Below are positions 40,176 through 59,157 of a DNA stretch of 59,499 bases, one piece after another. Each line of letters starts with the position of its first letter. Positions within the stretch are counted from its first letter, which is position 1. The DNA lies in IMG/VR virus record IMGVR_UViG_2874945390_000008. One strand, given 5' to 3'. Both the position numbers and the translations under genes were made by a program. Source of the DNA: a virus. Its lineage: Duplodnaviria; Heunggongvirae; Uroviricota; Caudoviricetes. Under the pieces are notes generated by a model that saw only the letters and a program-made list of their open reading frames with translations, did no database searches and had not been told where the DNA came from.

Positions 40176-40189
40176 GCTAATTTAACCAG

Positions 40190-40915: not shown

Positions 40916-40939
40916 CGCGTCTCATATCGCTCCGTAAAC

Positions 40940-41000
40940 ATCCGGGACGCCAATCCCGACGCCAGATTTTGCTGGCGCGTGAGGAATATAGCCCCGGATT
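40940..41000. repeat. ~60-bp conserved element, copy 2
   Basis: Same sequence as 37675..37735. Confidence 0.7.
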
Positions 41001-41065
41001 AACGTTGTCGTCAACAGCCACTACAGGCTAAACTAACAATATTCCCCAACAACGAAGGATTTAAC

Positions 41066-41353: not shown

Positions 41354-41461
41354 ATTACCAGCCCGTTCGGGGCTGGTTTACCTTACCCCAGCGGCAAATC
41401 GAATACACAACCAGCGCCACCGCCATTGCAATTCCTACCGTGGTGAATGCTTCAGGCCAGG

Positions 41462-41920
41462 TCATCGTAAAACATCCTCCACGCTTATCAGTCCATTTCG
41501 CTTCAGGTAATCCATCGCCTTCTCCGGTAATTTGCAGTCAGGCTTAGCTTTTTTCAGTTGACTGACCAGTCGTTTAACCCACATTGTTAATTCGCTAACC
41601 TGATTACTGGATGCTAGTAGGTTGTCGGCTTTACCCAGAATGACAGCACAGCAAGCCTCTTTGAGTACCCAGTCAACAGCGTCTTTCCATGCTCCTGTTT
41701 CGACTGGTGGATTCTCACGCTTTACCTGTTCATAAAAGCGCACGGCTTTAACCAGTCCTTCTGATGTCACCTGGACTGGCGGGGCAGTGAATAAGGCCTG
41801 AATTTCATAGTTCGGCCTGTCGTTACAATCCTCTTTTTTCGGTACATATTTCCAGTCACCAGACCACCACTTCCCCTGAAAGTCCGTAACGCCTTTTTTT
41901 TCACGTAGCGATATCGCCAT
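41462..41920 (-). CDS. Hypothetical phage protein
   Basis: 152-aa ORF. Confidence 0.4.
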   Translation of the reverse strand: MAISLREKKGVTDFQGKWWSGDWKYVPKKEDCNDRPNYEIQALFTAPPVQVTSEGLVKAVRFYEQVKRENPPVETGAWKDAVDWVLKEACCAVILGKADNLLASSNQVSELTMWVKRLVSQLKKAKPDCKLPEKAMDYLKRNGLISVEDVLR

Positions 41921-41975
41921 GCCACTGTTTTTGCTTGCCCCGCCGTTTCATGCCCTTCCTGATAATTAATCTCGC

Positions 41976-42152
41976 TCATTCATCGCCCCACTCATCACAA
42001 TATGCTTCGACCGGAGTTTTTCCTGCTTCATAATCATCACGCCATGCTTCAGCATCAGCAGCACTGCCACCACGTAACTCTGCATAGTCCATTAACAGTT
42101 CATGCCATTCTTCAAAACTGACGTTGTATTTAGTTGAACCAAAATCAGCCAT
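41976..42152 (-). CDS. Hypothetical small protein (58 aa, below track cutoff)
   Basis: MADFGSTKYNVSFEEWHELLMDYAELRGGSAADAEAWRDDYEAGKTPVEAYCDEWGDE; ATG overlaps the upstream stop. Confidence 0.35.
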   Translation of the reverse strand: MADFGSTKYNVSFEEWHELLMDYAELRGGSAADAEAWRDDYEAGKTPVEAYCDEWGDE

Positions 42153-42327
42153 TTTGTTCTTCCTCTTCGTCTTTTATTTCGTGATATGAGTAATTGCAGT
42201 AGTTAAAGAAAATATCTTTTGCTTCGTCATGTATTTCATCAGGCGTCGCATCATCATCCACTTCGAATTCATCCTCGAAATCTCCACCGGCTATTCCCGT
42301 TTCAATAATAATTTTGAACTTTCGCAT
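42145..42327 (-). CDS. Hypothetical small acidic protein
   Basis: MRKFKIIIETGIAGGDFEDEFEVDDDATPDEIHDE...; track ORF start lies inside the IS end. Confidence 0.35.
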   Translation of the reverse strand: MRKFKIIIETGIAGGDFEDEFEVDDDATPDEIHDEAKDIFFNYCNYSYHEIKDEEEEQNG

Positions 42328-42348
42328 TTCACTACCGCCCTTTCGGGC

Positions 42349-43647
42349 CTGAGGGATCCCCACAAAATTACTGCTAATAAACCAGCACCATATTTCGGTA
42401 GGTTCTGGACAGATGGTTTAGAACTGTGCTCAGTACTGTTCGTCTTAAAATAAGTGGCGAGTGTCGAAGAACATTCTTCGCTAACGTCAGATATGAGATA
42501 ACCCGCCGGGATTTAATGCTGTTAGCCTGATATTTCAGGTGTAACCCTTTATTTTCAGCGTGATAACCGAGTAACCACATTACGATAGTGCTCAACGTTG
42601 CCAGCAGACTCAGAACCAGAATTCTTCCTGTTGAACGACTTTTGCTGGCCCGAAGACCAAATCCGAAGCGCCCGTTCTTTTCATCACGAAAGTTTTGCTC
42701 TATCTGCATTCGCCGACTGTATAACTTGATGATTTCTCGCGCTCTGAAGTCATTTGTACTGCTGAAGATCAACCAGGCTTCTTTTGCTGATTTGCTCTGT
42801 TCTTTGTCTGTTTTGTTTAAACCACTCTGACCTTTCGAACGTTTCTTTTTTCGCCCTTTTGCCGATTTCTTATAGGTGTAAAAATGCCCCCGGATGCTTT
42901 TTTCCTTTCTTTAACCAGCCTTCCAGCCCCCATATATTCCGGTGTTTTACATTCAGGGCTATCCGACACTTTTAACCATCTTTCAGGCGCGTTATCGAGG
43001 CAATACTGAACGTTATTTCTGATCCGACCAATAAAATCCCAGCCCAGAGAAGTAATATGGTGAAACCATGCGCTCTGAAATCCAGCATCCGTGACAATAA
43101 TAACCCTGGCATCGGGGGCAGGGATTGAGCAAGGGAATCAAGGAAATCATGTTGTATCAATGGATTATTTTGTTTTTCAGAAGGAACAACCTTACTCAAT
43201 AACGGAATGGAACGCCCGTCACACAGAAGGCTGGCACGAAGAACATGATGCTCCTGGGAGGGATAGCCACTCCAGTCTACGGCTATTACACATAAAGATA
43301 ACTGCCGTGTCAGCATTGAAGTGATATTCCTGAAAATCATTGGAATATCGCGATGGAGCGCCTCATTACCCATGAGGCGATCAATACGTTTGCTCTTATT
43401 CTTAACTTGTGCATTACCCGGCAAAAAACGTCCGATACTGGTCAGCGTCAGAGATGCTCCGTTGATTAACGCCACTGTGGCATCCATCAGGGCATTTTGT
43501 CGGTACTGATGAAATGGTGCTAAGGCATCCCGGAAGAAATTCTGACATACTTTATGAACAGGCATAGCAGTGATCTCATTGAATTGTTGGCACAAATCAG
43601 TAGATCACATAATGCTATGTCTGTCTCGTTTTCTGGGGATTCCTCAG
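42349..43647 (-). mobile_element. IS10-like element (IS4 family), copy A, defective
   Basis: Ends CTGAGGGATCCCCACAAAA / CTGAGGAATCCCCAGAAAA; transposase frame broken by C6 to C5 (43114..43118) and A7 to A6 (42898..42903) relative to copy B. Confidence 0.8.
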
Positions 43648-43970
43648 GGCAGGGGGGCGGCGAATTGTCTCTGGTACCTGGCAAGGACTGGAACAATCAG
43701 CAGAATATCTATCACCGTTGGTTGAAAGGTGAAACGAAAGCGCAAAGGGAAAAAATTCAGAAACTGATCCCTGCGGTTCTGGCAATTCTTCCGCGTGAGC
43801 TGCGTCACCGACTCTGTATCTTCGATACCCTGGAACGCCGTGCATTACTGGCGGCGCAGGAAGCGTTGAGTACGGCAATTGATGCGCATGATGATGCTGT
43901 CCAGGCCGTTTACCGGAAAGCACATTTCAGCGGTGGTGGGTCGCCCGGCGATTCTGTCGTAGTGCATTGA
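43648..43970 (+). pseudogene. ydaT-like gene, 3' fragment
   Basis: Joins in frame with 47813..47921(-) across one copy of ggcaggggg to give MKIRHEHIESVLLALAAEKGQAWVANAITEEYLRQGGGELSLVPGKDW... Confidence 0.65.
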
Positions 43971-44047
43971 TTGAAATTAATCGTGCCGGATTGTTTTGTT
44001 CGGTATCAGTTAAATGTAACGCTGCGAGCGTTACAAGGTGAAAACAA

Positions 44048-44825
44048 ATGGCTTCAAACTGGATAAAGCTCGAGGTTATTACGCCGGATAAGCCGGAAAT
44101 ATTCAGGCTTGCTGAGATTCTGAATATTGATCCAGATGCCGCATTAGGGAAGGTTATTCGCTTCTGGGCATGGGCGGATCAACAAATGATAGACGGTAAT
44201 GCAGATTGTAACGCTCGCGGCGTTACAAAAAGTGCAATAGATCGCATCACTTTTATGTCTGGTTTTGCTGATGCGTTAATTCAGGTTGGATGGCTGGTCG
44301 AAAATGACGGTGGGCTTTCTCTACCTAACTTTGAACGTCATAACGGAAAAAGCTCTAAAAAAACGGGCGGTTACAAACGAGCGAGTAACAAAAATACGCG
44401 AACTGAAACGAAAAGGTAACGCGGCCAGCGTTACACAAACGGATCAAAAAGCGTTACCAGAGGAAGATCTAAATACTGATCTCCCCCTAAATCCCCCTCG
44501 CCAAAAACGAGCGTCTAAAAAATTCGAGCCGGAGGCTATTGAGCTGCCCGATTGGTTGCCGGAAACACTCTGGCATGAGTGGGTCCGGTTCAGACAGGCA
44601 TTGCGAAAACCGATTCGAACGGAGCAGGGCGCTAACGGGGCGATACGGGAACTGGAAAAATTCCGTCAGCAGGGTTTTACACCTGAGCAGGTGATTCGAC
44701 ACAGCATCGCCAATGAATACCAGGGCCTGTTCGCGCCGAAAGGTGTTCGGCCTGAGACGTTGCTCCGACAGGTTAACACCGTCTCGTTGCCGGACAGTGC
44801 GATCCCGCCAGGCTTCAGGGGGTAA
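44048..44825 (+). pseudogene. ydaU-like replication protein, frame broken at an A7 run
   Basis: ORFs 44048..44419 and 44286..44825 overlap in adjacent frames around ctaaaaaaacgg (about 44352). Confidence 0.45.
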
Positions 44826-44831
44826 CGGACC

Positions 44832-45578
44832 ATGAAAAATATTGCGACAGGCGGCGTTCTGGAACGCATCCGCCGACTGACCCCGCCACATGTAATCGCC
44901 CCATTCAGAACGGTAGCGGAGTGGTGCGAGTGGCAACTTGCTGAAGGCCAGAAACGTAGCGAGGAGATCAACCGCCTGAATCGCCAGTTGCGGGTGGAAA
45001 ATATTCTGAATCGCTCAGGCATCCAGCCGTTGCACCGTAAATGCTCGTTTGCGAATTACCAGGTGCAGAACGACGGCCAGCGATACGCGTTAAGCCAGGC
45101 GAAATCCATCGCCGATGAACTGATGACCGGGTGTACAAATTTTGCGTTCAGCGGAAAACCTGGTACCGGGAAGAATCACTTAGCGGCAGCTATCGGGAAT
45201 CGCCTGCTGAAAGACGGTCAGACAGTGAATGTGGTTACCGTGGCTGATGTTATGAGCGCCCTGCACGCCAGCTATGACGACGGGCAGTCAGGCGAAAAAT
45301 TTTTGCGGGAGCTGTGCGAAGTGGATCTGCTGGTTCTTGATGAAATTGGCATTCAGCGCGAGACGAAAAACGAGCAGGTGGTGCTGCACCAGATTGTTGA
45401 TCGCCGGACAGCGTCGATGCGCAGCGTGGGGATGCTGACAAACCTGAACTATGAGGTGATGAAAACATTGCTCGGCGAGCGGATTATGGATCGCATGACC
45501 ATGAACGGCGGGCGCTGGGTGAATTTTAACTGGGAGAGCTGGCGTCCGAATGTTAGCCATTCGAGGGTTGTTAAGTAG
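44832..45578 (+). CDS. DnaC-like helicase loader (Rac YdaV-like)
   Basis: Walker A GKPGTGKNHLAAAIG, Walker B LLVLDEIG; MKNIATGGVLERIRRL... Confidence 0.85.
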   Translation: MKNIATGGVLERIRRLTPPHVIAPFRTVAEWCEWQLAEGQKRSEEINRLNRQLRVENILNRSGIQPLHRKCSFANYQVQNDGQRYALSQAKSIADELMTGCTNFAFSGKPGTGKNHLAAAIGNRLLKDGQTVNVVTVADVMSALHASYDDGQSGEKFLRELCEVDLLVLDEIGIQRETKNEQVVLHQIVDRRTASMRSVGMLTNLNYEVMKTLLGERIMDRMTMNGGRWVNFNWESWRPNVSHSRVVK

Positions 45579-45592
45579 TTTCAGGAGGATTT

Positions 45593-46015
45593 ATGGCGAA
45601 ACCTTTTACTCCCGAACAGCGGGAAGAACTGAAGACGCGAATTGTGGAACTCGTGCATCAGGACGGTCGGGTCACGATTCGGCAGTTGTCAGATGAAACA
45701 GGTATCAGTCGTGCGTCTGTCGGTCGCTTATGCATGGAACTGGTCGCAAGTGGTGATGTATATAATTCTGGCTACGGCTTATTCCCGTCTGAACAGGCTC
45801 GCAAGGACTGGCAAAGCGCCCGCAAAAAACTCTCGAGAGTAAAGGTGAGGAAACCATCTGTGGTTGATCTGGATCTTATCTGGTCATTACCTGACGGAGA
45901 AATACGTCGTTACGACAGGCGTCATAATATAATTTGTACTGAGTGTCGTAAAAGCGAAGTTATGCAGCGTGTATTGGCTTTCTATCAGGGTAATTTTCAG
46001 GAGGTGGTACTGTGA
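45593..46015 (+). CDS. Putative HTH DNA-binding protein
   Basis: ...RVTIRQLSDETGISRASVGRLCMELVASGDV... HTH-like segment; 140 aa. Confidence 0.4.
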   Translation: MAKPFTPEQREELKTRIVELVHQDGRVTIRQLSDETGISRASVGRLCMELVASGDVYNSGYGLFPSEQARKDWQSARKKLSRVKVRKPSVVDLDLIWSLPDGEIRRYDRRHNIICTECRKSEVMQRVLAFYQGNFQEVVL

Positions 46016-46072
46016 GTGAAATTAGTTATCAGGCACTAATTGCCGCAGGCATTCGCATCAAAGGAGAGTGAC

Positions 46073-46429
46073 GTGGAAATAAAACCAGAAGATGAGTTAA
46101 GTAATATTGTTTTATTTCCGGTAAAAGAGGATGACCCTCGTAATCAGGTTAATTTTCTTTATGATCCATCGGAAAGACCATATTGCCATCACGCCTCTGT
46201 ACGGGTTGACGAAAAAGAGCGTCAGGTCCGCTGTAAAATCTGCGGTGCGGTTGTGGAGCCGTTTGACTGGATGCTCTCTGTGGCAAAAAGAGAAACCAGA
46301 CTGGCAGATGATGTAAGGCTATTGCGCCAGGAGGAACAGGAAAGGCGGAGAAATATAGAAAAGCTGATACAGATTGAGCGTAACGCGAAAGCGCGGATAC
46401 GCAGGGCGACAAAATCCAGAACTGAATAA
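46073..46429 (+). CDS. Zinc-ribbon / coiled-coil protein
   Basis: GTG start after AAGGAG; CHH...CKICG motif then charged coiled-coil. Confidence 0.35.
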   Translation: MEIKPEDELSNIVLFPVKEDDPRNQVNFLYDPSERPYCHHASVRVDEKERQVRCKICGAVVEPFDWMLSVAKRETRLADDVRLLRQEEQERRRNIEKLIQIERNAKARIRRATKSRTE

Positions 46430-46511
46430 TTAAATTTAGCACTGTTAAAAATTTAATCCTTAACCGGAGGGATTCCTGCACCCTCAAATCATCAGGAGGC
46501 CGCCCGAAAGG

Positions 46512-47812
46512 CTGAGGAATCCCCAGAAAACGAGACAGACATAGCATTATGTGATCTACTGATTTGTGCCAACAATTCAATGAGATCACTGCTATGCCTG
46601 TTCATAAAGTATGTCAGAATTTCTTCCGGGATGCCTTAGCACCATTTCATCAGTACCGACAAAATGCCCTGATGGATGCCACAGTGGCGTTAATCAACGG
46701 AGCATCTCTGACGCTGACCAGTATCGGACGTTTTTTGCCGGGTAATGCACAAGTTAAGAATAAGAGCAAACGTATTGATCGCCTCATGGGTAATGAGGCG
46801 CTCCATCGCGATATTCCAATGATTTTCAGGAATATCACTTCAATGCTGACACGGCAGTTATCTTTATGTGTAATAGCCGTAGACTGGAGTGGCTATCCCT
46901 CCCAGGAGCATCATGTTCTTCGTGCCAGCCTTCTGTGTGACGGGCGTTCCATTCCGTTATTGAGTAAGGTTGTTCCTTCTGAAAAACAAAATAATCCATT
47001 GATACAACATGATTTCCTTGATTCCCTTGCTCAATCCCTGCCCCCCGATGCCAGGGTTATTATTGTCACGGATGCTGGATTTCAGAGCGCATGGTTTCAC
47101 CATATTACTTCTCTGGGCTGGGATTTTATTGGTCGGATCAGAAATAACGTTCAGTATTGCCTCGATAACGCGCCTGAAAGATGGTTAAAAGTGTCGGATA
47201 GCCCTGAATGTAAAACACCGGAATATATGGGGGCTGGAAGGCTGGTTAAAGAAAGGAAAAAAAGCATCCGGGGGCATTTTTACACCTATAAGAAATCGGC
47301 AAAAGGGCGAAAAAAGAAACGTTCGAAAGGTCAGAGTGGTTTAAACAAAACAGACAAAGAACAGAGCAAATCAGCAAAAGAAGCCTGGTTGATCTTCAGC
47401 AGTACAAATGACTTCAGAGCGCGAGAAATCATCAAGTTATACAGTCGGCGAATGCAGATAGAGCAAAACTTTCGTGATGAAAAGAACGGGCGCTTCGGAT
47501 TTGGTCTTCGGGCCAGCAAAAGTCGTTCAACAGGAAGAATTCTGGTTCTGAGTCTGCTGGCAACGTTGAGCACTATCGTAATGTGGTTACTCGGTTATCA
47601 CGCTGAAAATAAAGGGTTACACCTGAAATATCAGGCTAACAGCATTAAATCCCGGCGGGTTATCTCATATCTGACGTTAGCGAAGAATGTTCTTCGACAC
47701 TCGCCACTTATTTTAAGACGAACAGTACTGAGCACAGTTCTAAACCATCTGTCCAGAACCTACCGAAATATGGTGCTGGTTTATTAGCAGTAATTTTGTG
47801 GGGATCCCTCAG
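46512..47812 (+). mobile_element. IS10-like element (IS4 family), copy B, intact
   Basis: 1301 bp; same ends as copy A; single 407-aa transposase ORF. Confidence 0.85.
46564..47787 (+). CDS. IS4-family (IS10-group) transposase
   Basis: MCQQFNEITAMPVHKVCQNFFRDALAPFHQYRQ...VTDAGFQSAW...YSRRMQIEQNFRDEK... Confidence 0.8.
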   Translation: MCQQFNEITAMPVHKVCQNFFRDALAPFHQYRQNALMDATVALINGASLTLTSIGRFLPGNAQVKNKSKRIDRLMGNEALHRDIPMIFRNITSMLTRQLSLCVIAVDWSGYPSQEHHVLRASLLCDGRSIPLLSKVVPSEKQNNPLIQHDFLDSLAQSLPPDARVIIVTDAGFQSAWFHHITSLGWDFIGRIRNNVQYCLDNAPERWLKVSDSPECKTPEYMGAGRLVKERKKSIRGHFYTYKKSAKGRKKKRSKGQSGLNKTDKEQSKSAKEAWLIFSSTNDFRAREIIKLYSRRMQIEQNFRDEKNGRFGFGLRASKSRSTGRILVLSLLATLSTIVMWLLGYHAENKGLHLKYQANSIKSRRVISYLTLAKNVLRHSPLILRRTVLSTVLNHLSRTYRNMVLVY

Positions 47813-47921
47813 CCCCCTGCCGCAGATATTCTTCAGTAATTGCGTTAGCGACCCACGCCTGCCCTTTTTCGGCTGCCAGGGCTAACAGCACTGATTCGAT
47901 GTGCTCATGCCTGATTTTCAT
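47813..47921 (-). pseudogene. ydaT-like gene, 5' fragment
   Basis: MKIRHEHIESVLLALAAEKGQAWVANAITEEYLRQG ends at the IS junction; 9-mer ccccctgcc abuts the IS. Confidence 0.6.
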
Positions 47922-48128
47922 GAATCACCTTCCTAGGTCGTTTTGCCTTACGATATTCGTCATAAACTTTGGGGTCGTACTGAAGTTCCCCGCCAGATGC
48001 CTCTTGCAGGCGCATCGCGCGACCTTCAGGAACCAGTTCCCCCCATGCAGGCTTGCCAGCCTAACTCCTGCGGCATTGGCAAGCTTTGTTTTGCTGCCAA
48101 AAAACGCTATAGCATCAATTTTCAACAT
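47905..48128 (-). pseudogene. dicC: Cro/DicC-like regulator with a 1-bp frameshift in a G-run
   Basis: MLKIDAIAFFGSKTKLANAAGVRLASLHGG then out of frame; adding one G restores ...ELVPEGRAMRLQEASGGELQYDPKVYDEYRK. Confidence 0.55.
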
Positions 48129-48204
48129 ATCGAGCTCCTTAGATTTTCCTAAGGAAACTAGATCGTAGAGAAACCTAAGTCAAGAAAAATTAGAATTCCC
48201 TAAT

Positions 48205-48612
48205 ATGAAAAACGAAACCTTCGGTGCTCGCCTCTTACATAGGCGTAAAAAATTAAAACTGTCTCAGGCCGCATTAGGTAAGCTGGTCAAAGTGGCTCAC
48301 GTAACAATTTCTCAATGGGAAAGAGATGAAACACAGCCGGCGGGGAAAAGATTATTCGCACTGAGCCAAGCGCTTCAGTGCTCACCGGCTTGGCTTCTTT
48401 TTGGGGATGAAGATAAACAACCAGGCGAACCGATCCCGGATAATCAGCCAGCCATTCTGACAGAAGATCAAAAAGAGTTACTTCAACTGTTCGACGCACT
48501 GCCTGAGTCAGAGCAAAAGGCCCTGTTGTCAGAGATGCGTGCTCGAGTTGAAAATTTCAACAAACTTTTTGAAGAACTACTCAAAGCTCGCAAAAGAAGC
48601 GCAAACAAATAA
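48205..48612 (+). CDS. dicA: DicA-like HTH repressor
   Basis: MKNETFGARLLHRRKKLKLSQAALGKLVKVAHVTISQWERDETQPAGKRLFALSQALQCSPAWLLFGDEDKQP...; divergent from the cro-like gene. Confidence 0.8.
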   Translation: MKNETFGARLLHRRKKLKLSQAALGKLVKVAHVTISQWERDETQPAGKRLFALSQALQCSPAWLLFGDEDKQPGEPIPDNQPAILTEDQKELLQLFDALPESEQKALLSEMRARVENFNKLFEELLKARKRSANK

Positions 48613-48817
48613 TCCCCTTTTTTCTCCACACCCTGTAATAAAAAGCACAAACTTTCAAACACTTGTGTTTTTTACATCAAAAAAAAACTTAGGTTTTTCT
48701 ACATAAAAATCTTGACCACCCACCTTAGGTTATTCTAAGTTTCATTCATCAAGACACCGCACGGTGTTCTCAGCAAACAGTTCCGCTACCCCGGCGTTAA
48801 GGGGAAATGGGGTCAAC

Positions 48818-48973
48818 ATGAATACTATCGATCTTGGCAACAACGAATCTCTGGTGTACGGCGTGTTCCCCAACCAGGACGGCACATTCACCGCCATGAC
48901 GTATACCAAAAGCAAAACGTTTAAAACCGAAGCTGGCGCACGTCGTTGGTTGGGAAGACATTCAGGTGAGTAA
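48818..48973 (+). CDS. ydfA: YdfA-like small protein
   Basis: MNTIDLGNNESLVYGVFPNQDGTFTAMTYTKSKTFKTEAGARRWLGRHSGE. Confidence 0.6.
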   Translation: MNTIDLGNNESLVYGVFPNQDGTFTAMTYTKSKTFKTEAGARRWLGRHSGE

Positions 48974-48974
48974 A

Positions 48975-49178
48975 ATGAACGAGACAGAATTAAAACACGT
49001 TATCGCTCTACTCCTAGAAGATGCAAAACGCCTCCAGCAACTGGAGCCAAATGCAGGCACTGGGGCGCGCATCTGGCTGGCTAAAGAAGCGCTGGAATCT
49101 GGCGATTATGATAGCGAAGAAGCCTTCTACAAAGCAGAAGGCCGTACAGGATATTCACCGGGTCTTGGCGGGGTATAA
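48975..49178 (+). CDS. YdfB-like small protein
   Basis: MNETELKHVIALLLEDAKRLQQLEPNAG...; ATG after AGGTGAG. Confidence 0.45.
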   Translation: MNETELKHVIALLLEDAKRLQQLEPNAGTGARIWLAKEALESGDYDSEEAFYKAEGRTGYSPGLGGV

Positions 49179-49363
49179 ATACCATGCGCATTGACTGAAT
49201 TCGCAAACAAAAACAGACGCGCGATACCTGGATAGTCGGTCTGCATAGTCAGATATCTGGCTGCGAATTTGATAAATATCACCGCCCTTTTCGGAAACAT
49301 AAGTTCCGTCCGGGAGTTGATTATACGAACCATCTCCATGGGGGATCGTTCTCCTGAATCCTA

Positions 49364-50516
49364 AATAGCTGCGCTTAATACCGCTACACTTTTGCCAGTC
49401 CATGTTTGCCTCCGGGGAATGGGCTGACGGTTTCCATAAAATGGCGAACTTTTTTCAACAGTTGCCACATTGAGCGGCACTGATGATTACGCGTTATTGT
49501 GTCGTGAAGTGCCTGCCATAGCCGTTCAACATGATTCACCCATGGCGAGTAAACCGGCTGATAAATGACCCTGAACTTCGGGTTCTCCTTCAGCCAGCTC
49601 TGTGTTTCCCGGCTTTTGTGGATAATGTAGTTGTCCACGATCAGCGTGATGGTTTTCGCCCGACGGTATGTCGCTTTAAGCCGCTTCAGCAGGCTGATGA
49701 ACAGCGCCGAACTTTTGCTGTTGCCGCCCACATAGCTGACTTTACCTGTCCCGCTGTGCAGCGCTCCGGCCAGATAATATTTTTCATTCTGTCCCGGCGT
49801 GACCACCCGTTTTTGCTGTCCGCGCAGTTGCCAGTCCGCACCGATTTTGGGATGAAGATGGATATCCACTTCATCTTCATAAAAGACCGGATGCTCTGCG
49901 CTGCATTCGTCCAGTGCTTTATGGATTGCTGCCATCTTTTCATCTTTATGCGGGTCACGGATACGCAGAGTTGGCGCAGCCCTTCGCCACACAATCCCCG
50001 CAGACGGCAACCAGCGGCGAACGGTTCCGGCATTTAACTGGCAACCGGTTATCTCATTGATTTTTATTGCCAGCAGTTCTGTACTCCAGCGTGAACGCTG
50101 GTAGCCAAAGTCGCCGGGAGAATGTTTTACCAGCTCACGTAACAGTGTGCAGATATGCTCAAACGGCCAGCGACGGGCACGCCCGGCAGGTAATGATTTC
50201 AGTCCCTCAACACCCGACTGCGTGAACCAGTTAATCCAGCGTCCAACAGAGGAACGGGCGCAGCAGAGCGTTCTGGCAACGTCGCTGACACGGTCGCCCC
50301 GGTGCAGCATCAGCATGGCAGTCAGTCTGCGGGCATAATTTTTATCGTGTGTTTTATGGATGGCTTTCTGCATCAGGCGTCGTTCGTCACGGGAAATTGG
50401 TGCTATGATCGGCATTGCTCAGTCCGGTTGGTGATTTGTTTTGATTTGGCGATTGATCAGATCGCACAATCCGGGCTAAGTTCCCTCAAAGTGATCTACT
50501 ATTCCGCGCAGCTATT
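49364..50516 (-). mobile_element. IS630 (1153 bp)
   Basis: Terminal inverted repeats aatagctgcgc / gcgcagctatt; TA duplication in a CTAG context (49362..49363 and 50517..50518). Confidence 0.85.
49384..50415 (-). CDS. IS630-family transposase
   Basis: 343-aa ORF MPIIAPISRDERRLMQKAIHKTHDKNYARRLTAMLMLHRGDRVSDVAR... Confidence 0.85.
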   Translation of the reverse strand: MPIIAPISRDERRLMQKAIHKTHDKNYARRLTAMLMLHRGDRVSDVARTLCCARSSVGRWINWFTQSGVEGLKSLPAGRARRWPFEHICTLLRELVKHSPGDFGYQRSRWSTELLAIKINEITGCQLNAGTVRRWLPSAGIVWRRAAPTLRIRDPHKDEKMAAIHKALDECSAEHPVFYEDEVDIHLHPKIGADWQLRGQQKRVVTPGQNEKYYLAGALHSGTGKVSYVGGNSKSSALFISLLKRLKATYRRAKTITLIVDNYIIHKSRETQSWLKENPKFRVIYQPVYSPWVNHVERLWQALHDTITRNHQCRSMWQLLKKVRHFMETVSPFPGGKHGLAKV

Positions 50517-50779
50517 TAGTGAGAGCATATATTTATGAAGCCCTTCGTAATCCTCTGGCTCAGCATTATATAGTTCTACTCTGGCGAGATACGTTGGCAT
50601 ATTCATTTCCTTACTGGTTGTGCGAGAACTTCAGTAAAGATACCACCAAAGCCCGGAGGTGGTGAAATAAAACCGGGCACAACACGAAGGCGCATTTCCG
50701 GTATCCATAAAGAGTCGGTCTTGTCTGTTAAATTTAAATGGTGGGAGTGCGCCTCCGGTTGTAAATAACGACATTGCTG

Positions 50780-50835
50780 TGTGAAGTACCAGTTGGCGGC
50801 ATCGGTTTAATTGCTGGCTGATGTCCGCCCTTTTT
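50780..50835 (+). ncRNA. dicF: DicF-like small RNA (candidate)
   Basis: ...agttGGCGGcatcggtttaattgctggctgatgtCCGCCcttttt resembles my recollection of DicF; lies downstream of dicA-ydfA-ydfB as in Qin. Confidence 0.4.
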
Positions 50836-51105
50836 AAAGTGAATTTTGTGATGCGGTGAATGCGGCTCAGCGCACGCGGAACAGTTAAAACAGTAAGGAA
50901 AATCCCTTATTCCGGCGTTAATTATTAACTGGTTAACGTCACCTGGAGGCACCAGGCACCGCATCAACAAAGTTCACTTCGGTGATGAAAGGAAAGAGAA
51001 AATGTTGAATGTAGCTATTGAAAACCAGAACGGGTGGAATTATAGTGCACCTGCACCTCATAAAACGGGTGCCGGGATTGCTACCCCGAAGTCATTCACG
51101 GCGCA

Positions 51106-51128
51106 TAACCGCGCTCAGGCGGTTTTTT
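51106..51128 (+). terminator. Hairpin plus T7 terminator upstream of the Rha-like gene
   Basis: aaccgcgctcaggcggttttttta. Confidence 0.5.
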
Positions 51129-51295
51129 TATGCGTAATGCACAGCCACATTCAAATTATGGTGGGGCGTGCGGGGCAGTCGCAAGACTGGCCGGGTTCCG
51201 TGATGACCGGTTGTAGCAACCCTGTACGTCTCACCACCCATGAGATTGCTACCTCCGGTGGTGAGTTAATCACATTCATCGCGGAGGCTGCCATC

Positions 51296-51844
51296 ATGGC
51301 TACTACCCTTTCTCACCCTTGTGTAACCGTAGAAAACGGTCGCGCTGTCACTACGTCTGTTGCGGTTGCAGAGTTCTTCCACAAACGACACGACAATGTG
51401 TTACGTGCCATCGCAAATATTGAATGCTCAGATAAATTTACTGCCCTCAATTTTGAGGCGAGCGAATACACCGACTCAACCGGGCGCAAACTCCCAATGT
51501 ACCAAATCACCAAAAACGGCTTCGTTTTCCTGGTGATGGGCTTCACTGGCAAAAAAGCCGCCGCATTCAAGGAAGCCTACATTGCTGAGTTCGACCGCAT
51601 GGAGGCCGAACTGCGCCAGAATAACACCCCACCTGCTGACAAGATGATTCCGGGTGATGGTCGCACTCTGGTTGTTCACTTCGACAAATTCGGCAATGTC
51701 GAATTCACCGAAACCGTTCCTGATGGCGCACTGGTCTGTACCCTGGAGACTTTCCGGTTTTATCTGGAAAAACAGGGATGGACTCTTGTTAACCGGGGCG
51801 CAATTAAAAATATGACTGTGGAACAATTACTTTCTTTAAAATAA
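51296..51844 (+). CDS. Rha-family phage regulatory protein
   Basis: ...TTSVAVAEFFHKRHDNVLRAIANIECSDKFTALNF...; start at ATG 51296 after GGAGG; track ORF extends upstream across the terminator. Confidence 0.65.
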   Translation: MATTLSHPCVTVENGRAVTTSVAVAEFFHKRHDNVLRAIANIECSDKFTALNFEASEYTDSTGRKLPMYQITKNGFVFLVMGFTGKKAAAFKEAYIAEFDRMEAELRQNNTPPADKMIPGDGRTLVVHFDKFGNVEFTETVPDGALVCTLETFRFYLEKQGWTLVNRGAIKNMTVEQLLSLK

Positions 51845-51860
51845 AAATGGAGCTACGGAT

Positions 51861-52142
51861 ATGAACCCTATGCTTGATTATTGTTTTACCTCTGCACCTC
51901 AGCAGACCATAACACACACCGGAATCAAAAAATTGTTATGGATAATCAAAAAAACCCTCCAGCAGAAAGGTGATCCCGATTTAATTCCCTGTGCTTATGG
52001 CCTGTGTGACAGACAAGTAAGCCCTGATAAGGCTTACTCTGCTGAACTTATTTACATGCACGGAACCATGATGAGGAAAAAGAAACGCAAATATTGTAGT
52101 GAAATCTGTGCCGAAAAAGACCAGATGGCACACGAACTTTAA
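51861..52142 (+). CDS. Hypothetical Cys-containing small protein
   Basis: 93-aa ORF with CAYGLC...YCSEIC pattern. Confidence 0.4.
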   Translation: MNPMLDYCFTSAPQQTITHTGIKKLLWIIKKTLQQKGDPDLIPCAYGLCDRQVSPDKAYSAELIYMHGTMMRKKKRKYCSEICAEKDQMAHEL

Positions 52143-52216
52143 TTAACTGACTATTCGAAACTGAATTTATGCCAGCAATGGCAGGGATTCACTCAACCTT
52201 AAAAAAGGAAACAGCA

Positions 52217-52513
52217 ATGAGTATTATTGAATGTGAAATTGAACTTGATGTTATTAACGATTCTCTCGCCGAATTTAAATGTGGGAATACATTACATAGT
52301 TTCATTCAGATTTCCCAAAAAGAAAACGTCACGGTAATTATTGATGGCTGTTACGTTCTGAGAACATTTGATTGTTGTGTATGTGCCATTAAAGAAATTG
52401 CATTACTCACAGCTCGCATTGAAGAGGCTGACAAGAAATACGGTATCAGTTATCAACGACTGAAAGAACTCTCTCATATCGCATCATCAGTTCGTTTCTT
52501 TTATGCAATCTGA
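52217..52513 (+). CDS. Hypothetical AT-rich small protein
   Basis: MSIIECEIELDVINDSLAEFKCGN...; start after AAGGAA. Confidence 0.4.
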   Translation: MSIIECEIELDVINDSLAEFKCGNTLHSFIQISQKENVTVIIDGCYVLRTFDCCVCAIKEIALLTARIEEADKKYGISYQRLKELSHIASSVRFFYAI

Positions 52514-52536
52514 ATATGAGTTGAGGTTAAAAAACA

Positions 52537-54477
52537 ATGAGCACCGATAAACAAGTTTACCCACTGTATTACGAAGCAAAAAATGACAAAGTAAGAAAAC
52601 GCCTCGGTATTAAAGGCGGTTTTTACTGGGCTGAAGCGAAAAAATTATCCATTGCCATCTCCCGTGGTGCTGTTGCGATTGACGATGCAGGCTACGATGA
52701 AGATGACTTTAAAAAACCTGTTCACGTCAATTTGCCCGTTGTTGATGACCTCCCGCCAGAAGGCGTGTTTGATACGGAATTCTGCAACCGTTACGAAAAA
52801 GGCGGGGAAGATGGCATCACAATGGTATTTATCGCATCTTCTCCCTCTGTTCAGGACAAACCAGCCAGCACTGACAATACCAACGTCAACGGCGAAGACA
52901 TGACAGAAATTGAGGAGAACATGCTCCTGCCAGTTTCCGGTCAGGAACTGCCCATTCGCTGGCTTGCTCAACACGGCAGCGAAAAACCGGTAACGCACGT
53001 TTCACGCGACGGACTCCAGGCATTACACATTGCTCGGGCTGAAGAACTACCGGCTGTTACTGCCCTGGCTGTTTCCCACAAAACCAGCCTGCTCGACCCG
53101 CTGGAAATTCGCGATCTCCACAAACTGGTTCGTGACACTGACAAAGTTTTCCCTAATCCTGGTAATTCAAGCCTGGGACTGATAACTGCTTTTTTCGAAG
53201 CATACCTGAACGCTGACTACACCGATCGAGGACTGCTGACAAAAGAGTGGATGAAGGGTAATCGTGTTTCACACATCACTCGCACGGCTTCCGGTGCTAA
53301 TGCTGGCGGCGGAAACCTCACCGATCGCGGCGAAGGTTTCGTACACGATCTGACGTCACTGGCGCGCGACGTAGCCACTGGCGTACTGGCCCGTTCAATG
53401 GATCTGGACATCTATAACCTTCATCCGGCACACGCTAAACGCATTGAGGAAATTATCGCTGAAAATAAACCGCCCTTTTCTGTTTTCCGCGACAAATTCA
53501 TCACCATGCCTGGCGGGCTGGATTATTCCCGCGCCATCGTGGTTGCGTCCGTAAAAGAAGCACCAATTGGGATCGAGGTCATCCCCGCGCACGTCACTGA
53601 ATATCTGAACAAGGTACTGACTGAAACCGATCATGCCAACCCTGATCCGGAAATCGTGGATATTGCCTGCGGTCGCTCCTCTGCCCCGATGCCGCAGCGT
53701 GTAACAGAAGAAGGAAAACAGGATGATGAAGAAAAACCGCAACCATCTTGCGCAATGGCAGATGAACAGGCAACGGCTGAAACAGTGGAACCGGATGCAA
53801 CTGAACATCATCAGGACACGCAGCCGCTGGATGCTCAGTCACAGGTAAATGCTGTTGATGCGAAATATCAGGAACTGCGGGCAGAACTCCATGAAGCCCG
53901 GAAAAACATTCCGCCCAAAAATCCTGTCGATGCAGACAAATTACTGGCTGCCTCTCGCGGAGAATTTGTTGAAGGGATTAGCGACCCGAATGATCCGAAA
54001 TGGATTCCCGGTCATCATATCTCCTCAAATGAAGTCAAAAAAACGGAAAATGAAGTGCGACAGACTGAAGATAAACAGCACCAGAACAGCGAACCGGAGG
54101 AGGGAACACCCTGCAATCAGACTGGCGAGGATAACTGCCCTGACTGTGGCGCGGTGATGGGAGACGCAACTTATCAGGAAACTTTTGACGAAAAAAAACC
54201 AGATGAAGCACAGGAAGAAGAGCCGAAGAAAACGGAAAAAGCTGATGATTTGTTACCGGAGAACGCTGGCAGCGATCAGCATAATGATAGCAATAATGAA
54301 ACTGGCGAAGATGAACTCAACTGGAAAAAACAGGTGTTGATTGCGGCGGTTTACGGTTTATGTGCGAATCCTGCGTGCATAGCCTATGCGCCTGCAATCC
54401 CTGACATCGCAATGATGATTGCCAACAAGCTTGAAAATTTTGGAGTGACCAGTGATGAGCGCTTACCCGATTTTTGA
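52537..54477 (+). CDS. Large hypothetical protein (646 aa) with acidic C-terminal region
   Basis: Uninterrupted ORF; no family recognised from memory. Confidence 0.5.
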
Positions 54478-54751
54478 TCGTATTGAAGAAATGGCATGGG
54501 CTCGCCACTACCAGCAGATCGTTCGTGAAGAAAAAGAAACGGAACTGGCGGACGACCTGGAAAAAGGTCTGCCTCAGCACCTGTTTGAATCGCTCTGCAT
54601 CGACCATTTGCAACGCCACGGTGCCAATAAACAGGCAATCAGCCACGCATTTGATGATGATGTTGAGTTTCAGGAGCGCATGGCAGAACACATCCGGTAC
54701 ATGGCTGAAACCATTGCCCACCACCAGGTTGATATTGATTTGGAGGACTAA
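54455..54751 (+). CDS. Hypothetical protein (98 aa)
   Basis: ATG overlaps the upstream gene's 3' end. Confidence 0.4.
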
Positions 54752-55566
54752 AATCTATGGCGCTTTTTCAACGAGCAATAAACACACAGGCCTATCTAAA
54801 AGCAGGAATTATGGGGTTTGCTGGCGACGGCAAAACCTACACAGCAAGCGAACTGGCTATTGGTCTGGTAATGCTTATGCGGCAACGGGGAATTGAAGCT
54901 GGTAACCGCCCGGTAATGTTTCTGGACACAGAAACAGGCTCTGACTGGGTTAAACCCCGCTTTGATGCGGAAAATATCGAATTATTTACGGCAAAAACCC
55001 GCTCGTTTGTTGATCTGCTTGAAGCCATTAATGAAGCGGAAAGCAGCGGTTCCGTAATGATCATCGACTCCATCAGTCACTTCTGGACCGGATTATGCGA
55101 CGAGTATGCCAGACGCCGAAACCGTAAACGAGGACTGGAATTTTCAGACTGGGCGTGGCTCAAACAGGAGTGGCGACGCTTTACCGATCGATTTGTTAAC
55201 AGTCAGGCGCACATTATTATGTGCGGGCGTGCAGGATATGAGTATGACTTTTTCGAAGGTGATGATGGCAAACGCCAGTTGGCAAAAACCGGTATAAAAA
55301 TGAAAGCAGAAACAGAAACCGGTTATGAACCCTCCATCCTGATCCAGATGGAGAAGCAAATGAACATAGAAACCGGTCAGGTGTGGCGCACCGCCAGAAT
55401 ACTAAAAGATCGCTCCACCCGTATTGATGGACAGGTATTTTCAAACCCAACATTTAAAAACTTTCTTCCTCATATCGAGTTTCTTAACCTGGGAGGTGAA
55501 CACCTCGGCATCGATACCTCACGGGATAACAGTGAATTATTTGCCAACGACGGTACACCGACATGG

Positions 55567-56816
55567 TGAGGTGTACTGGCAATAGCGGACACTACCATTT
55601 GTTCTTTTTTTAAGCAGCCATCTGATGATATTTTTCCCTGAAGGCTGCCGGGGAGATATTCCCCAGACGAGAGTGACGACGCTGACGATTGTAGAAAATC
55701 TCAATGTATTCCCGTATTACTGAGATGGCTTCATCCCGGTTATTAAAACGATAGTGGCTCAGGCTCTCATTTTTCAGCGTTCCCCAGAAGCTTTCCATCG
55801 GAGCGTTGTCGTAACAGTTACCTTTACGCGACATTGATGTTTTCAGACCAAACTGCTCCTGTATGACCCGGTAATCGTATGCGCAGTACTGTGAACCTCG
55901 ATCAGAGTGGTGGATTAGCCCGGCAGGTGGGCGCTGGCTCCTGAGCGCCATAAACAGGGCTTTACCTGTCAGCTCTTTTGTCATGCGCTCTCCCATGGCG
56001 TAGCCGACAATTTCGCACGTATAAACATCTTTGATGCCAGCGAGGTACAACCATCCCTCCTGTGTGGCAACATACGTCAGGTCCGCCACCCAGACCTGAT
56101 TTGGTGCTGTAGGAGCGAACGTCTGGTTCAGCAGATTTGGCGCAACTGGCAGATTGTGGTTCGGGTTCGTAGTCGCTCTGAACTTGCGTTTCTGCTTACA
56201 GCGTAGCCTTAGCTCCTTACGAAGACGTGCCAGTCGGTCACGACCAACGATGATGCCATTCTCTGCCAGCTCCGTCTGGAGCCGCCGGGTTCCATATGTT
56301 TCGCGAGTGCGGATATGTGCCACCTTAATCTCCAGTTTTAGCCGCTCATCACTTTGTTTTCTGTCTGAGGGTTCATGCTGTACCCAGTTGTAATAACCGC
56401 TCCTGGATACACCAAATACCTGACACATCGCTTCAATGGGAAATTGTTGTCGCCATTGTTCGATTAACGCGTATTTTTCAGCGACTCCTGTGCAAAATTT
56501 TAATATATCTCGCTCAAGGCGAGCTTCATTTAACGCCTTACGCAGTTGCAGAATTTCAGATTCCAGTTCAGCCACCGTGCGGGAACCAGGAGTACCGAGC
56601 CCTTTTCTGGCGGCGGTAACCCATTGTCCTAAAGTGCCTTCAGGAAGGAATAATCGGGAAGCGCCTTCACTGATCGAAAGTTGATTTTCAAGAACCGTTC
56701 TGACAGCTTCGGCTTTGAACTCTTTAGAGTAACGTTGGGTTTTTCTGCTCATTATTAGCTCCTTCTGATGCCATTCTATTTCAGGAAGGAGTGTCCGTTA
56801 AACTCAGGCTACCTCA
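55567..56816 (-). mobile_element. IS600-like copy 3 (1250-bp variant)
   Basis: Same ends; 3-bp direct repeat TGG (55564..55566 and 56817..56819). Confidence 0.88.
55610..56752 (-). CDS. IS600 OrfAB in-frame fused transposase (380 aa)
   Basis: Single ORF MSRKTQRYSKEFK...RDILKFCTGVAEKY...; the frameshift window is removed by a 14-bp deletion relative to copy 2. Confidence 0.8.
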   Translation of the reverse strand: MSRKTQRYSKEFKAEAVRTVLENQLSISEGASRLFLPEGTLGQWVTAARKGLGTPGSRTVAELESEILQLRKALNEARLERDILKFCTGVAEKYALIEQWRQQFPIEAMCQVFGVSRSGYYNWVQHEPSDRKQSDERLKLEIKVAHIRTRETYGTRRLQTELAENGIIVGRDRLARLRKELRLRCKQKRKFRATTNPNHNLPVAPNLLNQTFAPTAPNQVWVADLTYVATQEGWLYLAGIKDVYTCEIVGYAMGERMTKELTGKALFMALRSQRPPAGLIHHSDRGSQYCAYDYRVIQEQFGLKTSMSRKGNCYDNAPMESFWGTLKNESLSHYRFNNRDEAISVIREYIEIFYNRQRRHSRLGNISPAAFREKYHQMAA

Positions 56817-57146
56817 TGGCTAAAAGAAAAGCGTGCAAAAGAAATCGCACTTGATGAAATTATCGAGTTGCTCAACAAGCACCATGGGGGCACCAGTAAC
56901 GACGCCAAACGCGCAAAAGCTGATTTGCTGGAAAAAACATTCACCTCCCGCTCATGGGAAAGAATCAAAGGTATGGACTGGCCGACAATCAAAGCTGGTC
57001 GTAATGCACTATGGATTGAACTGGAAGGCGTTGAATATGCATTCCCGGATCCACAAACACAAAACGAAACGCAACAAGCAGGATACGATGAGAATATTCC
57101 GGTGTAAAACCAAGTGCATTTTGGGAAAATATTAATGGAGGTGTTC

Positions 57147-57335
57147 ATGTATAAAATTACAGCCACTATTGAAAAGGAAGGTGGTTCTCCTGCCAGCTGG
57201 ACAAGATACTCAAAGACAAAACTAACGAAATCAGAATGCGAAAAAATGCTCTCAGGGGAAAAAGAAGCAGGCGTTTCCAGAGAGCAGAAAGTAAAACTGA
57301 TAAATTTTAATTGCGAGAAACTTCAGTCCTCGTGA
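57147..57335 (+). CDS. Hypothetical small protein
   Basis: MYKITATIEKEGGSPASWTRYSK...; ATG after GGAGG. Confidence 0.35.
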   Translation: MYKITATIEKEGGSPASWTRYSKTKLTKSECEKMLSGEKEAGVSREQKVKLINFNCEKLQSS

Positions 57336-57435
57336 ATTTCATTATATCCAGATTAGAACTTCATAGCTGATTATTAAAAATCAACCACACCCGCCAGTAT
57401 TCTGTATATTTACTGGCGGTCATATCGTGAGAGGT

Positions 57436-57723
57436 ATGGCAATGAATCTTGTGACACTCAAAACGTGGGGAAAACTCAGATATCCGGATACCCCACCATC
57501 AATATCAACGCTGAGACGATGGGCAAGGAATGGAAACATTTATCCTGCACCTGAACTACACGGGAGGAGTTACAGGGTGGTTCCGGAGGCTTTCTATATC
57601 AACCCAAATAAGGTTGATACCGATATAACACACCATCAGCCTAATGGGCGACAAGGGAGAGACAGTCCGTTAATGGAGAAGTTAAAACATGCAGCGGAAA
57701 AAATACGATCCCAATTTGCCTAG
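57436..57723 (+). CDS. xis: Excisionase-like protein
   Basis: ...ISTLRRWARNGNIYPAPELHGRSYRVVPEAFYI...; immediately upstream of and overlapping int. Confidence 0.6.
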   Translation: MAMNLVTLKTWGKLRYPDTPPSISTLRRWARNGNIYPAPELHGRSYRVVPEAFYINPNKVDTDITHHQPNGRQGRDSPLMEKLKHAAEKIRSQFA

Positions 57724-58765
57724 AAACTTAACATATCGAAGGAGAGACAAAGCATATTACTGGCGCAACCCTCTGACGAAAGAAGAATTTACACTAGGTA
57801 AAATTTCAAGAAGAGATGCAGTAGCGCAGGCAATTGAAGCAAATCATTATATATACAAAAACTACTCTCCTGCTGCCCTAATTGAAAAGCTTAAAGGGGT
57901 CGACTCATTTACTATGGCAGACTGGATTGAACGTTACAAAACGATTCTTATAAGGAGAAAAGCGTCCAGAAATACTTATAAAACTCGGGTAAATCAACTG
58001 GAGACAATAAAAGAAAAATTAGGAGGGGTTTTACTGACAGAAATAACCACTCGCCATATCGCCGAGTTTCTTGATTTGTGGATTGAAGGAGGGAAAAACA
58101 CGATGGCAGGATCAATGCGTTCTGTGTTATCTGATATGTTCCGCGAAGCCATTGTTGAAGGACGTATATCTCAAAATCCAGTAACGCCAACAAGAGCACC
58201 GAAAATAGTAGTTACAAGAGAACGGCTGAAACTAAAGACATACAACTGCATCAGGGAGGCAGCAGATCAACTTCCGGCATGGTTCCCATTAGCTATGGAC
58301 TTAGCCCTTGTAACAGGACAACGTCGCGAAGACATAACGAATATGCGGTTCAGTGATATTTATGATGATCGTCTCCACATCAGGCAAATTAAGACAGGAA
58401 TGATGATTGCTATCCCCCTGTCACTCAGCCTTCCTGTCGCTGGTTTACGACTTGGTGCAGTAGTTAAACAGTGCCGCATGGTAAGTAGGGGGGATTATCT
58501 AATCAGTGCCGGGATTAGAAAAAACAGCCCTGACGGCAGCATTCACCCGGACGGCCTGACAAAGAAATTTGTCGCAGCCAGAAAATTAACAGGTATCCTG
58601 TTCAGTGAAAACCCACCAACTTTTCACGAAATCAGAAGCCTGGCTGGACGATTGTACAAAGAAATATGTGGAGAAGAATTTGCTCAGCGTCTACTTGGCC
58701 ACACATCGGAGAAGACAACAAAAATGTATCTTGATGAGAGAGAAAAAACGTACTTACTGCTCTGA
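57689..58765 (+). CDS. int: Tyrosine integrase (lambda Int-like)
   Basis: ...[10 protein letters not shown]...[15 protein letters not shown]...[17 protein letters not shown]... Confidence 0.9.
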
Positions 58766-58896
58766 TTTTAACGTAAATGGATTGTTAAATGTATTTTGGT
58801 TGTGATATAACCAAAAAAGACCGGAATACAGAAATTCGAGTAAATTTCGGGGAATTTCGGGGAAGCATTTGTAACTAATTGATTTCAAATGCAATT

Positions 58897-58999
58897 AAAA
58901 AAAGACCGAATACGATTCCTGTATTCGGTCCAGGGAAATGGCTCTTGGGAGAGAGCCGTGCGCTAAAAGTTGGCATTAATGCAGGCTTAGTTGCCTTGC
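58897..58999 (-). ncRNA. sdsR: SdsR/RyeB-like small RNA
   Basis: Minus strand GCAAGGCAACTAAGCCTGCATTAATGCC...CCCTGGACCGAATACAGGAATCGTATTCGGTCTTTTTTT as I recall SdsR; terminal hairpin plus T-run. Confidence 0.55.
58904..58929. other. Putative attR core overlapping the sdsR 3' hairpin
   Basis: Direct imperfect repeat of 376..401; tandem aatttcgggg motif at 58845..58864 between int and the core. Confidence 0.4.
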
Positions 59000-59078
59000 C
59001 CTTTAAGAATAGATGACGACGCCAGGTTTTCCAGTTTGCGTGCAAAATGGTCAATAAAAAGCGCGGTGGTCATCAGCT

Positions 59079-59120
59079 TAAATGTTAAAAACCGCCCGTT
59101 CTGGTGAAAGAACTGAGGCG
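59079..59120. terminator. Bidirectional hairpin with flanking T/A runs
   Basis: aaaaaCCGCCcgttctggtgaaagaactgaGGCGGttttttt. Confidence 0.45.
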
Positions 59121-59157
59121 GTTTTTTTATTGGAAATCAAAAGGCTATTTTAGGTAA

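Follow-up and report, generated by a model that had tools for sequence, protein, structure and literature searches.

Probable integration of a lambda-like prophage into the terminator hairpin of the small RNA gene sdsR

The virus record IMGVR_UViG_2874945390_000008 (Caudoviricetes) comprises 59,499 nucleotides; this whole stretch of DNA was analysed and is called the window below. It contains a prophage which adjoins the 3' end of sdsR (ryeB), the gene of a small RNA (sRNA). Beyond its far end is a fragment of pphA, and yebY follows sdsR at right (Table 1). An earlier note on this DNA had recognized SdsR/RyeB on the minus strand at 58897..58999. Indeed, the Rfam family SdsR_RyeB (RF00111) matched over its full length at 58897-58996 (-) with 118.1 bits compared to a gathering score of 38. 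A distance of 131 bp separates the end of the integrase gene int from sdsR. The gene is identical to that of E. coli K-12 from ACGATTCC on, and identity reaches about 60 nt upstream of the 5' end.

The earlier note further had placed a prophage of about 58.5 kb between pphA-like and yebY-like flanks. This was borne out by comparison with 5426 complete E. coli genomes. Window positions 48-399 on the pphA side and 58896-59499 on the sdsR-yebY side match all of them, and in K-12-type genomes these two segments are joined directly with an overlap of 32 bp. The pphA-yebY spacer is uninterrupted in 5189 of the 5426 genomes. The other 237 sites are interrupted, and nearly all are accounted for by the phage type described here: its int-side junction was present in 228 genomes, as was its far junction. 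About 4% of the complete E. coli genomes (228/5426) thus hold a phage of this type at sdsR. Between the two flanks lies a single prophage with int and the excisionase gene xis adjoining the sdsR junction. That the locus is an insertion hot spot, also claimed earlier, is published for ryeA/ryeB of Salmonella, where the last 23 bp of ryeB are given as a phage attachment site and insertion hot spot (Balbontin 2008, as related in PMC7380047 and PMC3333887). An island catalogue uses 'RyeB' as integration-site label for a Citrobacter prophage (Cfr111.52.RyeB); apart from this label, reports of the sdsR site in E. coli or Shigella were not found in the literature. As a phage attachment site the 3' end of sdsR is already known.

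The core of the attachment site is present in the window in only two copies, one at each end of the prophage. They align over 32 bp (368-399 and 58896-58927) with three mismatches; a match of this quality was not obtained in 100 shuffles of the window. The previous description of the left copy, 26 bp at 376..401 with three mismatches, was roughly right, yet the true homologous stretch is longer. Its designation as attL followed the orientation of the window; in lambda nomenclature it is attR, and the int-adjacent right junction is attL. The attB of K-12 is AAAAAGAGACCGAACACGATTCCTGTATTCGGTCC. An uninterrupted attP is available from the phage genome PP818812.1, AAAAAAAGACCGAATACGATTCCTGTTTTCGTCAAC; its sequence is that of the right-junction arm fused with the left-junction arm. 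Further attP forms are present in IMG/VR (loci L054/L103, L070 and L085). The left junction, AAAAAGAGACCGAACACGATTCCTGTTTTCGTCAAC, is attB through the C, followed by attP from the T of TGTTTT. The right junction, AAAAAAAGACCGAATACGATTCCTGTATTCGGTCC, is its mirror image. By this comparison attB, attP and the two junctions are an exact reciprocal recombinant set. Two differences between attB and attP, C/T at 383 and 58911 and T/A at 395 and 58923, bound an interval of 11 bp, ACGATTCCTGT. Because the attP/attB differences were sorted by one reciprocal crossover, strand exchange must have taken place within ACGATTCCTGT. Other lysogens display the same pattern. In IMG/VR, all 36 contigs with pphA-side DNA in front of the TTTTCGTCAAC arm carry the C (C...T), and the three contigs in which the int-side phage arm precedes the TTTTCGTCAAC arm, i.e. 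attP forms, carry the T (T...T). Nearly all unique right-junction arms among the fetched relatives read GACCGAATACGATTCCTGTATTCGG.

How does this interval relate to sdsR? ACGATTCCTGT comprises the sdsR terminator loop of 7 nt, GATTCCT (58914-58920), and two bases on either side. The hairpin, GGACCGAATAC-AGGAATC-GTATTCGGTCT, has a stem of 10-11 bp and is followed by TTTTTTT. Together with its T-run it was the sole terminator-like site in a scan of 58600-59200. The core sites of tyrosine recombinases consist of two inverted binding sites which flank an overlap of 6-8 bp, and 7-nt loops of transfer RNAs (tRNAs) are targeted by integrases with the same stem-loop geometry. We infer that the loop GATTCCT is the overlap region, the data narrowing the overlap to 11 bp, and that the stem arms GACCGAAYAC and GTATTCGGTC may be the inverted core-type Int sites. 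The body of sdsR and the 5' stem arm are bacterial, the 3' stem arm and the U-tail (58897 to about 58913) phage-derived. In the rebuilt hairpin one G.U pair is replaced by an A-U pair and the folding energy, -15.8 kcal/mol, equals that of K-12. The tail is altered from CUCUUUUUAUC to CUUUUUUUAAUU, which extends the uninterrupted U-run from five to seven. The remnant at the left junction (368-399) was folded in search of a residual terminator; a stable hairpin was not found (-6.7 kcal/mol, z about 0).

The int gene is intact and codes for a lambda-type heterobivalent tyrosine integrase. Pfam matches were Phage_integrase, Phage_int_M and Arm-DNA-bind_1 (PF09003, 28.0 bits, cut-off 22). The protein aligns over its full length, starting at residue 8, with the lambda Int structures 5j0n and 1z1b (E=5e-71), and the N-terminal arm-binding domain also matches PDB 1kjk (E=5e-4). 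Identity is 41.5% to HK022 Int and about 39% to 434 Int and integrases of lambda-like phages. The catalytic residues R212, K235, H313, R316, H338 and Y347 are all in place; we take them to correspond to R212, K235, H308, R311, H333 and Y342 in lambda numbering. With Int alone as query, a scan of genome contigs gave just two loci, which were nearly identical. An IMG/VR scan with an alignment of three Int sequences yielded 429 loci with related integrases, 80 of which were fetched. The sdsR core was located about 135 bp past the int stop codon in 77 of these 80 loci; the other three were cut too short. Therefore, the integrase clade is tied to the sdsR site. At one relative, L008 (Shigella flexneri SFBU1023, CP182556.1), int is 97% identical and has four stop codons over the matched coordinates; it is perhaps a frameshifted pseudogene.

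The segment between int and the core carries three tandem repeats, AAATTCGAG, AATTTCGGGG and AATTTCGGGG, spaced by 11 and 10 bp; the TTCG motifs start at 58835, 58846 and 58856. A tandem aatttcgggg at 58845..58864 had been proposed as an integrase arm site. The motif is present as two exact copies of AATTTCGGGG, at positions 58843-58862, 2 nt lower than stated, and is part of the triple repeat; a role as arm site is supported by comparison with the relatives. Among the 76 scored relatives with a located core, all except one have TTCG at -69/-58/-48 from the core start (shifted by 1 nt in two loci). This spans relatives with Int identities of 61-100%; in the exception, L017, the repeats are lost. 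The bases 3' of TTCG vary by lineage and tend to change together across the three repeats: GAG/GGG/GGG in the lineage of the window, and AGG three times, GAC three times or GAA twice plus GAT in other lineages. The N-terminal segment of Int also varies between lineages with different bases next to TTCG. In the far arm similar repeats are located at +136, +157 and +168 from the core start. The TTCG at +157 was kept in five of five Enterobacterales relatives examined besides the window, even in L005, L070 and L085 with their divergent arms. The most distant relative, L006, lacks TTCG at +157 and has it at +137 and +145 instead. The TTCG repeats in both arms are probably Int arm-type sites. Closer to the far core is ATTCAAnnAGTTA, which we take to resemble the consensus of integration host factor (IHF).

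Further details of the arms were noticed. Directly ahead of the int-side repeats and 88 bp before the core is a pseudo-core, AAAGACCGGAATAC (58816..58829, +), which imperfectly copies the left core half-site. The window has no second match of this kind (0.03 expected by chance), and the pseudo-core is conserved in all int relatives. The deletion in L017 runs exactly from pseudo-core to core and removed the arm repeats. Just past the int stop codon, at 58795-58822, is an inverted repeat, TTTTGGTT-GTGATAT-AACCAAAA, largely conserved among the relatives; it is not a canonical terminator because a T-run does not follow. The attP forms L106 and L110 in IMG/VR combine a Salmonella-type int-side arm (TTCGAGG repeats) with an E. 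coli-type far arm. Therefore, arms have been exchanged between lineages, and arm-site specificity must tolerate both variants.

Table 1. Coordinates of features in the window, from left to right (a dot marks features without strand)
Feature	Position	Strand	Basis or remark
IS600, fourth copy	1-47		cut by window edge; interrupts pphA
pphA 5' fragment, ~62 codons	48-234	-	cut by IS600 end (1-47) at ~codon 63
ryeA (sraC) promoter and 5' end, transcription start ~331	295..367	+	ryeA +10 primer of PMC6610125 (Choi et al.) maps to 321-340
Int-distal junction core (attR, lambda naming), TAAAAAGAGACCGAACACGATTCCTGTTTTCG	368..399	+	left part K-12 attB, right part attP
Prophage body	400..58895	.	colinear with PP818812.1; Pfam
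ATTCAAnnAGTTA element, possible IHF site	491..503	+	conserved at +116 in the far arms compared, apart from that of L006
Far-arm repeats TTTCGAG (511-517), TTTCGGG (532-538), TTTCAGG (543-549)	509..551	+	inferred arm-type sites
IS600, full copies	655-1904, 36407-37671, 55563-56816
CssrB sRNA	1918-2100	-	Rfam; just upstream of ipaH, opposite strand
IpaH-type type III effector (LRR_TTSS and NEL E3-ligase domains)	2229-3944	+	tail-fibre end of prophage
IS110-family transposase gene	24957-26153
trkG-like TrkH transporter gene	31688-33163
Four tRNA genes	35140-35447
hok/sok module	39915-40087
IS4-like transposase gene	46564-47787
IS630-like transposase gene	49384-50415
RalR/RalA type I toxin-antitoxin	57153-57331		known from rac prophage
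xis (excisionase)	57427..57723	+	Pfam Exc, 53 bits; overlaps int start; annotated excisionase in NZ_CP074872
int, lambda-type heterobivalent tyrosine integrase, 358 aa, intact	57689..58765	+	Pfam, lambda Int alignment
Three tandem repeats AAATTCGAG, AATTTCGGGG, AATTTCGGGG	58832..58862	+	inferred Int arm-type sites
Int-proximal junction core (attL, lambda naming), TAAAAAAAGACCGAATACGATTCCTGTATTCG	58896..58927	+	left part attP of PP818812.1, right part K-12 attB
sdsR (ryeB) sRNA	58897..58998	-	Rfam; 5' end per mapping in PMC6610125
Strand-exchange interval ACGATTCCTGT, 11 bp	58912..58922 (left-junction equivalent 384-394)	.	flanked by attB/attP differences
ryeA remainder (sdsR-antisense part and terminator)	58923..59128	+	Rfam; +261 to +270 mapping; GC hairpin and T-run ending ~59128
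yebY, complete	59158-59499	-	comparison with E. coli genomes

The prophage is organized from the left as tail fibres, baseplate, tail, head, terminase, lysis, nin/Q, immunity and replication, recE, recT, ralR, xis and int. The right end codes for a RecE-like exonuclease, the RalR/RalA pair, an excisionase of the Exc family and the integrase; the open reading frame called recT is named after its annotation and has AAA_24 as sole Pfam match. A deposited relative is PP818812.1 (47.5 kb), 'Actinobacillus phage vB_Apl-pPE4'. Its Int is 96.9% identical and its attP is that of both junction arms joined (L004:1200-1260). In reverse orientation the two genomes align colinearly, about 30 kb of them with 77-98% identity. 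The matches start at the far att arm (368-650), pass through the genes of tail fibre, baseplate, tail, head, terminase, lysis and nin region, and end at int (57689-58927). Exceptions are 43650-43975, which matches in opposite orientation, and 35.6-41 kb, where the matches are duplicated. PP818812.1 (L007) differs in that it is devoid of insertion sequence (IS) elements, ipaH and the trkG-like gene and has a different immunity/replication region. The prophage has at least six IS insertions; by comparison with PP818812.1, a head-region gene is split by the IS110-family element. IS load and ipaH together indicate a Shigella-type genome. Because of the multiple IS insertions the prophage is probably defective for growth, though int, xis and both att arms are intact. 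The arms are considered intact because the nearest IS600 is 270 bp away from the core, past the last conserved arm element. The attP of PP818812.1 copies an enterobacterial sdsR 3' end, at odds with the Actinobacillus host label; we regard this label as doubtful, and an E. coli strain may be the origin of the phage.

On the opposite strand sdsR overlaps ryeA (sraC). The Rfam family SraC_RyeA matched at 58893-59037 (+) with 179 bits, antisense to sdsR. This match is limited to what lies downstream of the core. Because the Rfam model starts only 4 nt before the A-run, a full-length SraC match is not evidence of an intact ryeA. The first 53-63 nt of RyeA remained at the far junction together with the sigma70 ryeA promoter. 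Thus, the window lacks ryeA as a single transcription unit of the K-12 type; the promoter is 58.5 kb away from the antisense body and terminator. In K-12, pphA is expressed by read-through of transcripts which start at the sdsR promoter, and transcription of ryeA interferes with that of sdsR (PMC6610125). For Salmonella it is related that lysogeny of PhiW104 lowers ryeA and raises ryeB (as cited in PMC7380047). By analogy, RyeA would be expected to fall and SdsR to rise in lysogens of the present type.

Taken together, we propose that Int of a temperate lambda-like phage inserted the phage genome into the sdsR terminator hairpin by site-specific recombination, and put the probability at roughly 0.9. 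The 3' end of sdsR is attB, attP has a 32-bp imperfect version of it, and strand exchange is confined to ACGATTCCTGT. The hairpin stem arms would provide the inverted core-type sites for Int, and the overlap would be the 7-nt loop. On the int side, the N-terminal domain of Int would bind the three A(A/T)TTCG-type repeats, 48-69 bp away from the core; on the far side it would bind two or three repeats of similar sequence at a distance of 136-168 bp, with IHF and Xis as presumptive helpers as in lambda. Integration rebuilt sdsR with a phage-supplied 3' stem arm and U-tail. At the same time it severed the ryeA promoter from the ryeA body and cut off pphA from sdsR read-through.

Several points weigh against parts of this proposal. 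The 7-bp overlap is narrowed no further than the 11-bp interval. The source of PP818812.1, which provided attP, is doubtful, and it may not have been sequenced from virions. A promoter scan of the plus strand of the int-side arm did not find a sigma70-like promoter which might replace that of ryeA. The expected regulatory effects derive by extrapolation from Salmonella and from promoter mutants of K-12. In this genome pphA is already broken by IS600, so its uncoupling adds no effect. Lastly, the TTCG repeats could bind Xis or a host protein instead of Int.

This last point amounts to an alternative in which the repeats are not Int arm sites at all, being bound by Xis or a host factor or representing functionless slippage remnants. 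In lambda, tandem direct repeats are also bound by Xis, and the exact 10-mer is not enriched across the whole window when up to one mismatch is allowed. Yet the positions -69/-58/-48 are fixed down to 61% Int identity despite diverged flanking arm sequences. The motif also recurs in the far arm with conservation at +157, as expected for sites bridged by Int and not for Xis sites in one arm, and Int has a recognizable arm-binding domain. We consider this alternative unlikely.

Two other explanations concern the insertion as such. The left core could be a once-perfect direct repeat which decayed by mutation in an old, fixed insertion; after all, the copies differ at three of 32 positions and the prophage clearly is old enough to have acquired many IS elements. 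The earlier note had regarded this copy as degenerate. However, all three differences are fixed differences between attP and attB, each on the side expected from a reciprocal crossover. Moreover, the identical hybrid was seen in 36/36 other left junctions and in nearly all right junctions; the same hybrid in other lysogens therefore rules out random decay. With a pattern that fits reciprocal crossover, mutational decay of the repeat is hardly credible and was rejected. Alternatively, the 58.5-kb interval could be a composite of at least two elements, only the right part of which belongs to the int/sdsR system. Its length exceeds that of PP818812.1 by 11 kb, about half of it is unmatched there, and it contains several copies of a C4/isrK module in both orientations, ipaH, the trkG-like gene and many IS elements. 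Against this, the matches with PP818812.1 follow one colinear order from the far arm to int, barring the two exceptions mentioned above, and the window has only two core copies. The excess length is largely IS elements and cargo, and the early region, which is unmatched, is where lambdoid phages are usually mosaic. On account of colinearity and core-copy number we rejected a composite origin, which is very unlikely. A single prophage inserted by a reciprocal crossover in the sdsR hairpin is the preferred explanation.

The PhiW104 and related ryeA-ryeB insertions of Salmonella are a close precedent. By the published description they use the same site, the last ~23 bp of ryeB/sdsR internal to ryeA, and the 5' part of ryeA is replaced on integration, as here. 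Salmonella phage and prophage integrases about 72% identical to the present Int adjoin the same core. The present host, in contrast, is E. coli or Shigella. Between attP and the E. coli attB there are three differing positions, which reveal the crossover interval.

Lambda and HK022 share with the present prophage an Int of 39-41.5% identity over the full length, with arm-binding, core-binding and catalytic domains and all catalytic residues, and an Exc-family Xis encoded upstream and overlapping int. The arms of lambda have sites P'1-P'3 in the short arm and P1/P2 in the long arm. Similarly, the short int-side arm has three tandem repeats here, and the long arm has further ones at a distance of 136-168 bp. 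In contrast to lambda and HK022, the target is the terminator hairpin of an sRNA and not the gal-bio spacer, the predicted arm motif is A(A/T)TTCG and not the lambda arm consensus, and the int-side arm has an extra pseudo-core.

Integrases which target genes of tRNA or transfer-messenger RNA (tmRNA) reportedly perform the crossover in a 7-nt loop between two stem arms, as Williams is said to have set out in 2002. The resemblance is apparent. attB is the 3' end of a gene for a small structured RNA, the phage-supplied 3' end keeps this gene intact, and the crossover interval coincides with a 7-nt hairpin loop between inverted-repeat stems. Here, the hairpin is the Rho-independent terminator of a regulatory sRNA, not an anticodon loop or T-loop. 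In addition, the sdsR locus is bidirectional and RyeA is not restored.

A more far-reaching reading may be considered in which the sdsR terminator stem-loop is an attB resembling an anticodon loop and lysogeny is a heritable SdsR/RyeA/pphA switch carried by about 4% of E. coli, and by Shigella. We offer it tentatively and would lean slightly against it. If true, the ryeA promoter and its interference would be removed, SdsR would go up with a longer, phage-encoded U-tail, and read-through into pphA would be silenced. Lysogenic conversion would then operate through a stress sRNA. The literature describes SdsR and RyeA as a toxin-antitoxin-like pair of sRNAs which also controls pphA; lysogens and non-lysogens may thus differ in stationary-phase regulation, an effect demonstrated only for Salmonella.

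Within the known framework the window adds one more prophage, carrying ipaH and riddled with IS elements, at a documented attachment site in an sRNA gene. What is added is of modest value. Natural mismatches between attP and attB narrowed the crossover interval to the terminator loop, conserved probable arm-type sites define attP of the integrase family, and a census of occupancy is available, comprising 228/5426 complete E. coli genomes and the 429 related integrase loci in IMG/VR.

A minor observation concerns the immunity region. The C4 antisense RNA/isrK/a1b1 target module is present in several copies in both orientations (36264-36348, 37627-37729, 40790-40991 and 51053-51241). The copies adjoin Rha/Ash and ORF6N antirepressor-like genes, and one abuts IS600. 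This suggests duplicated or rearranged immunity-antirepressor modules.

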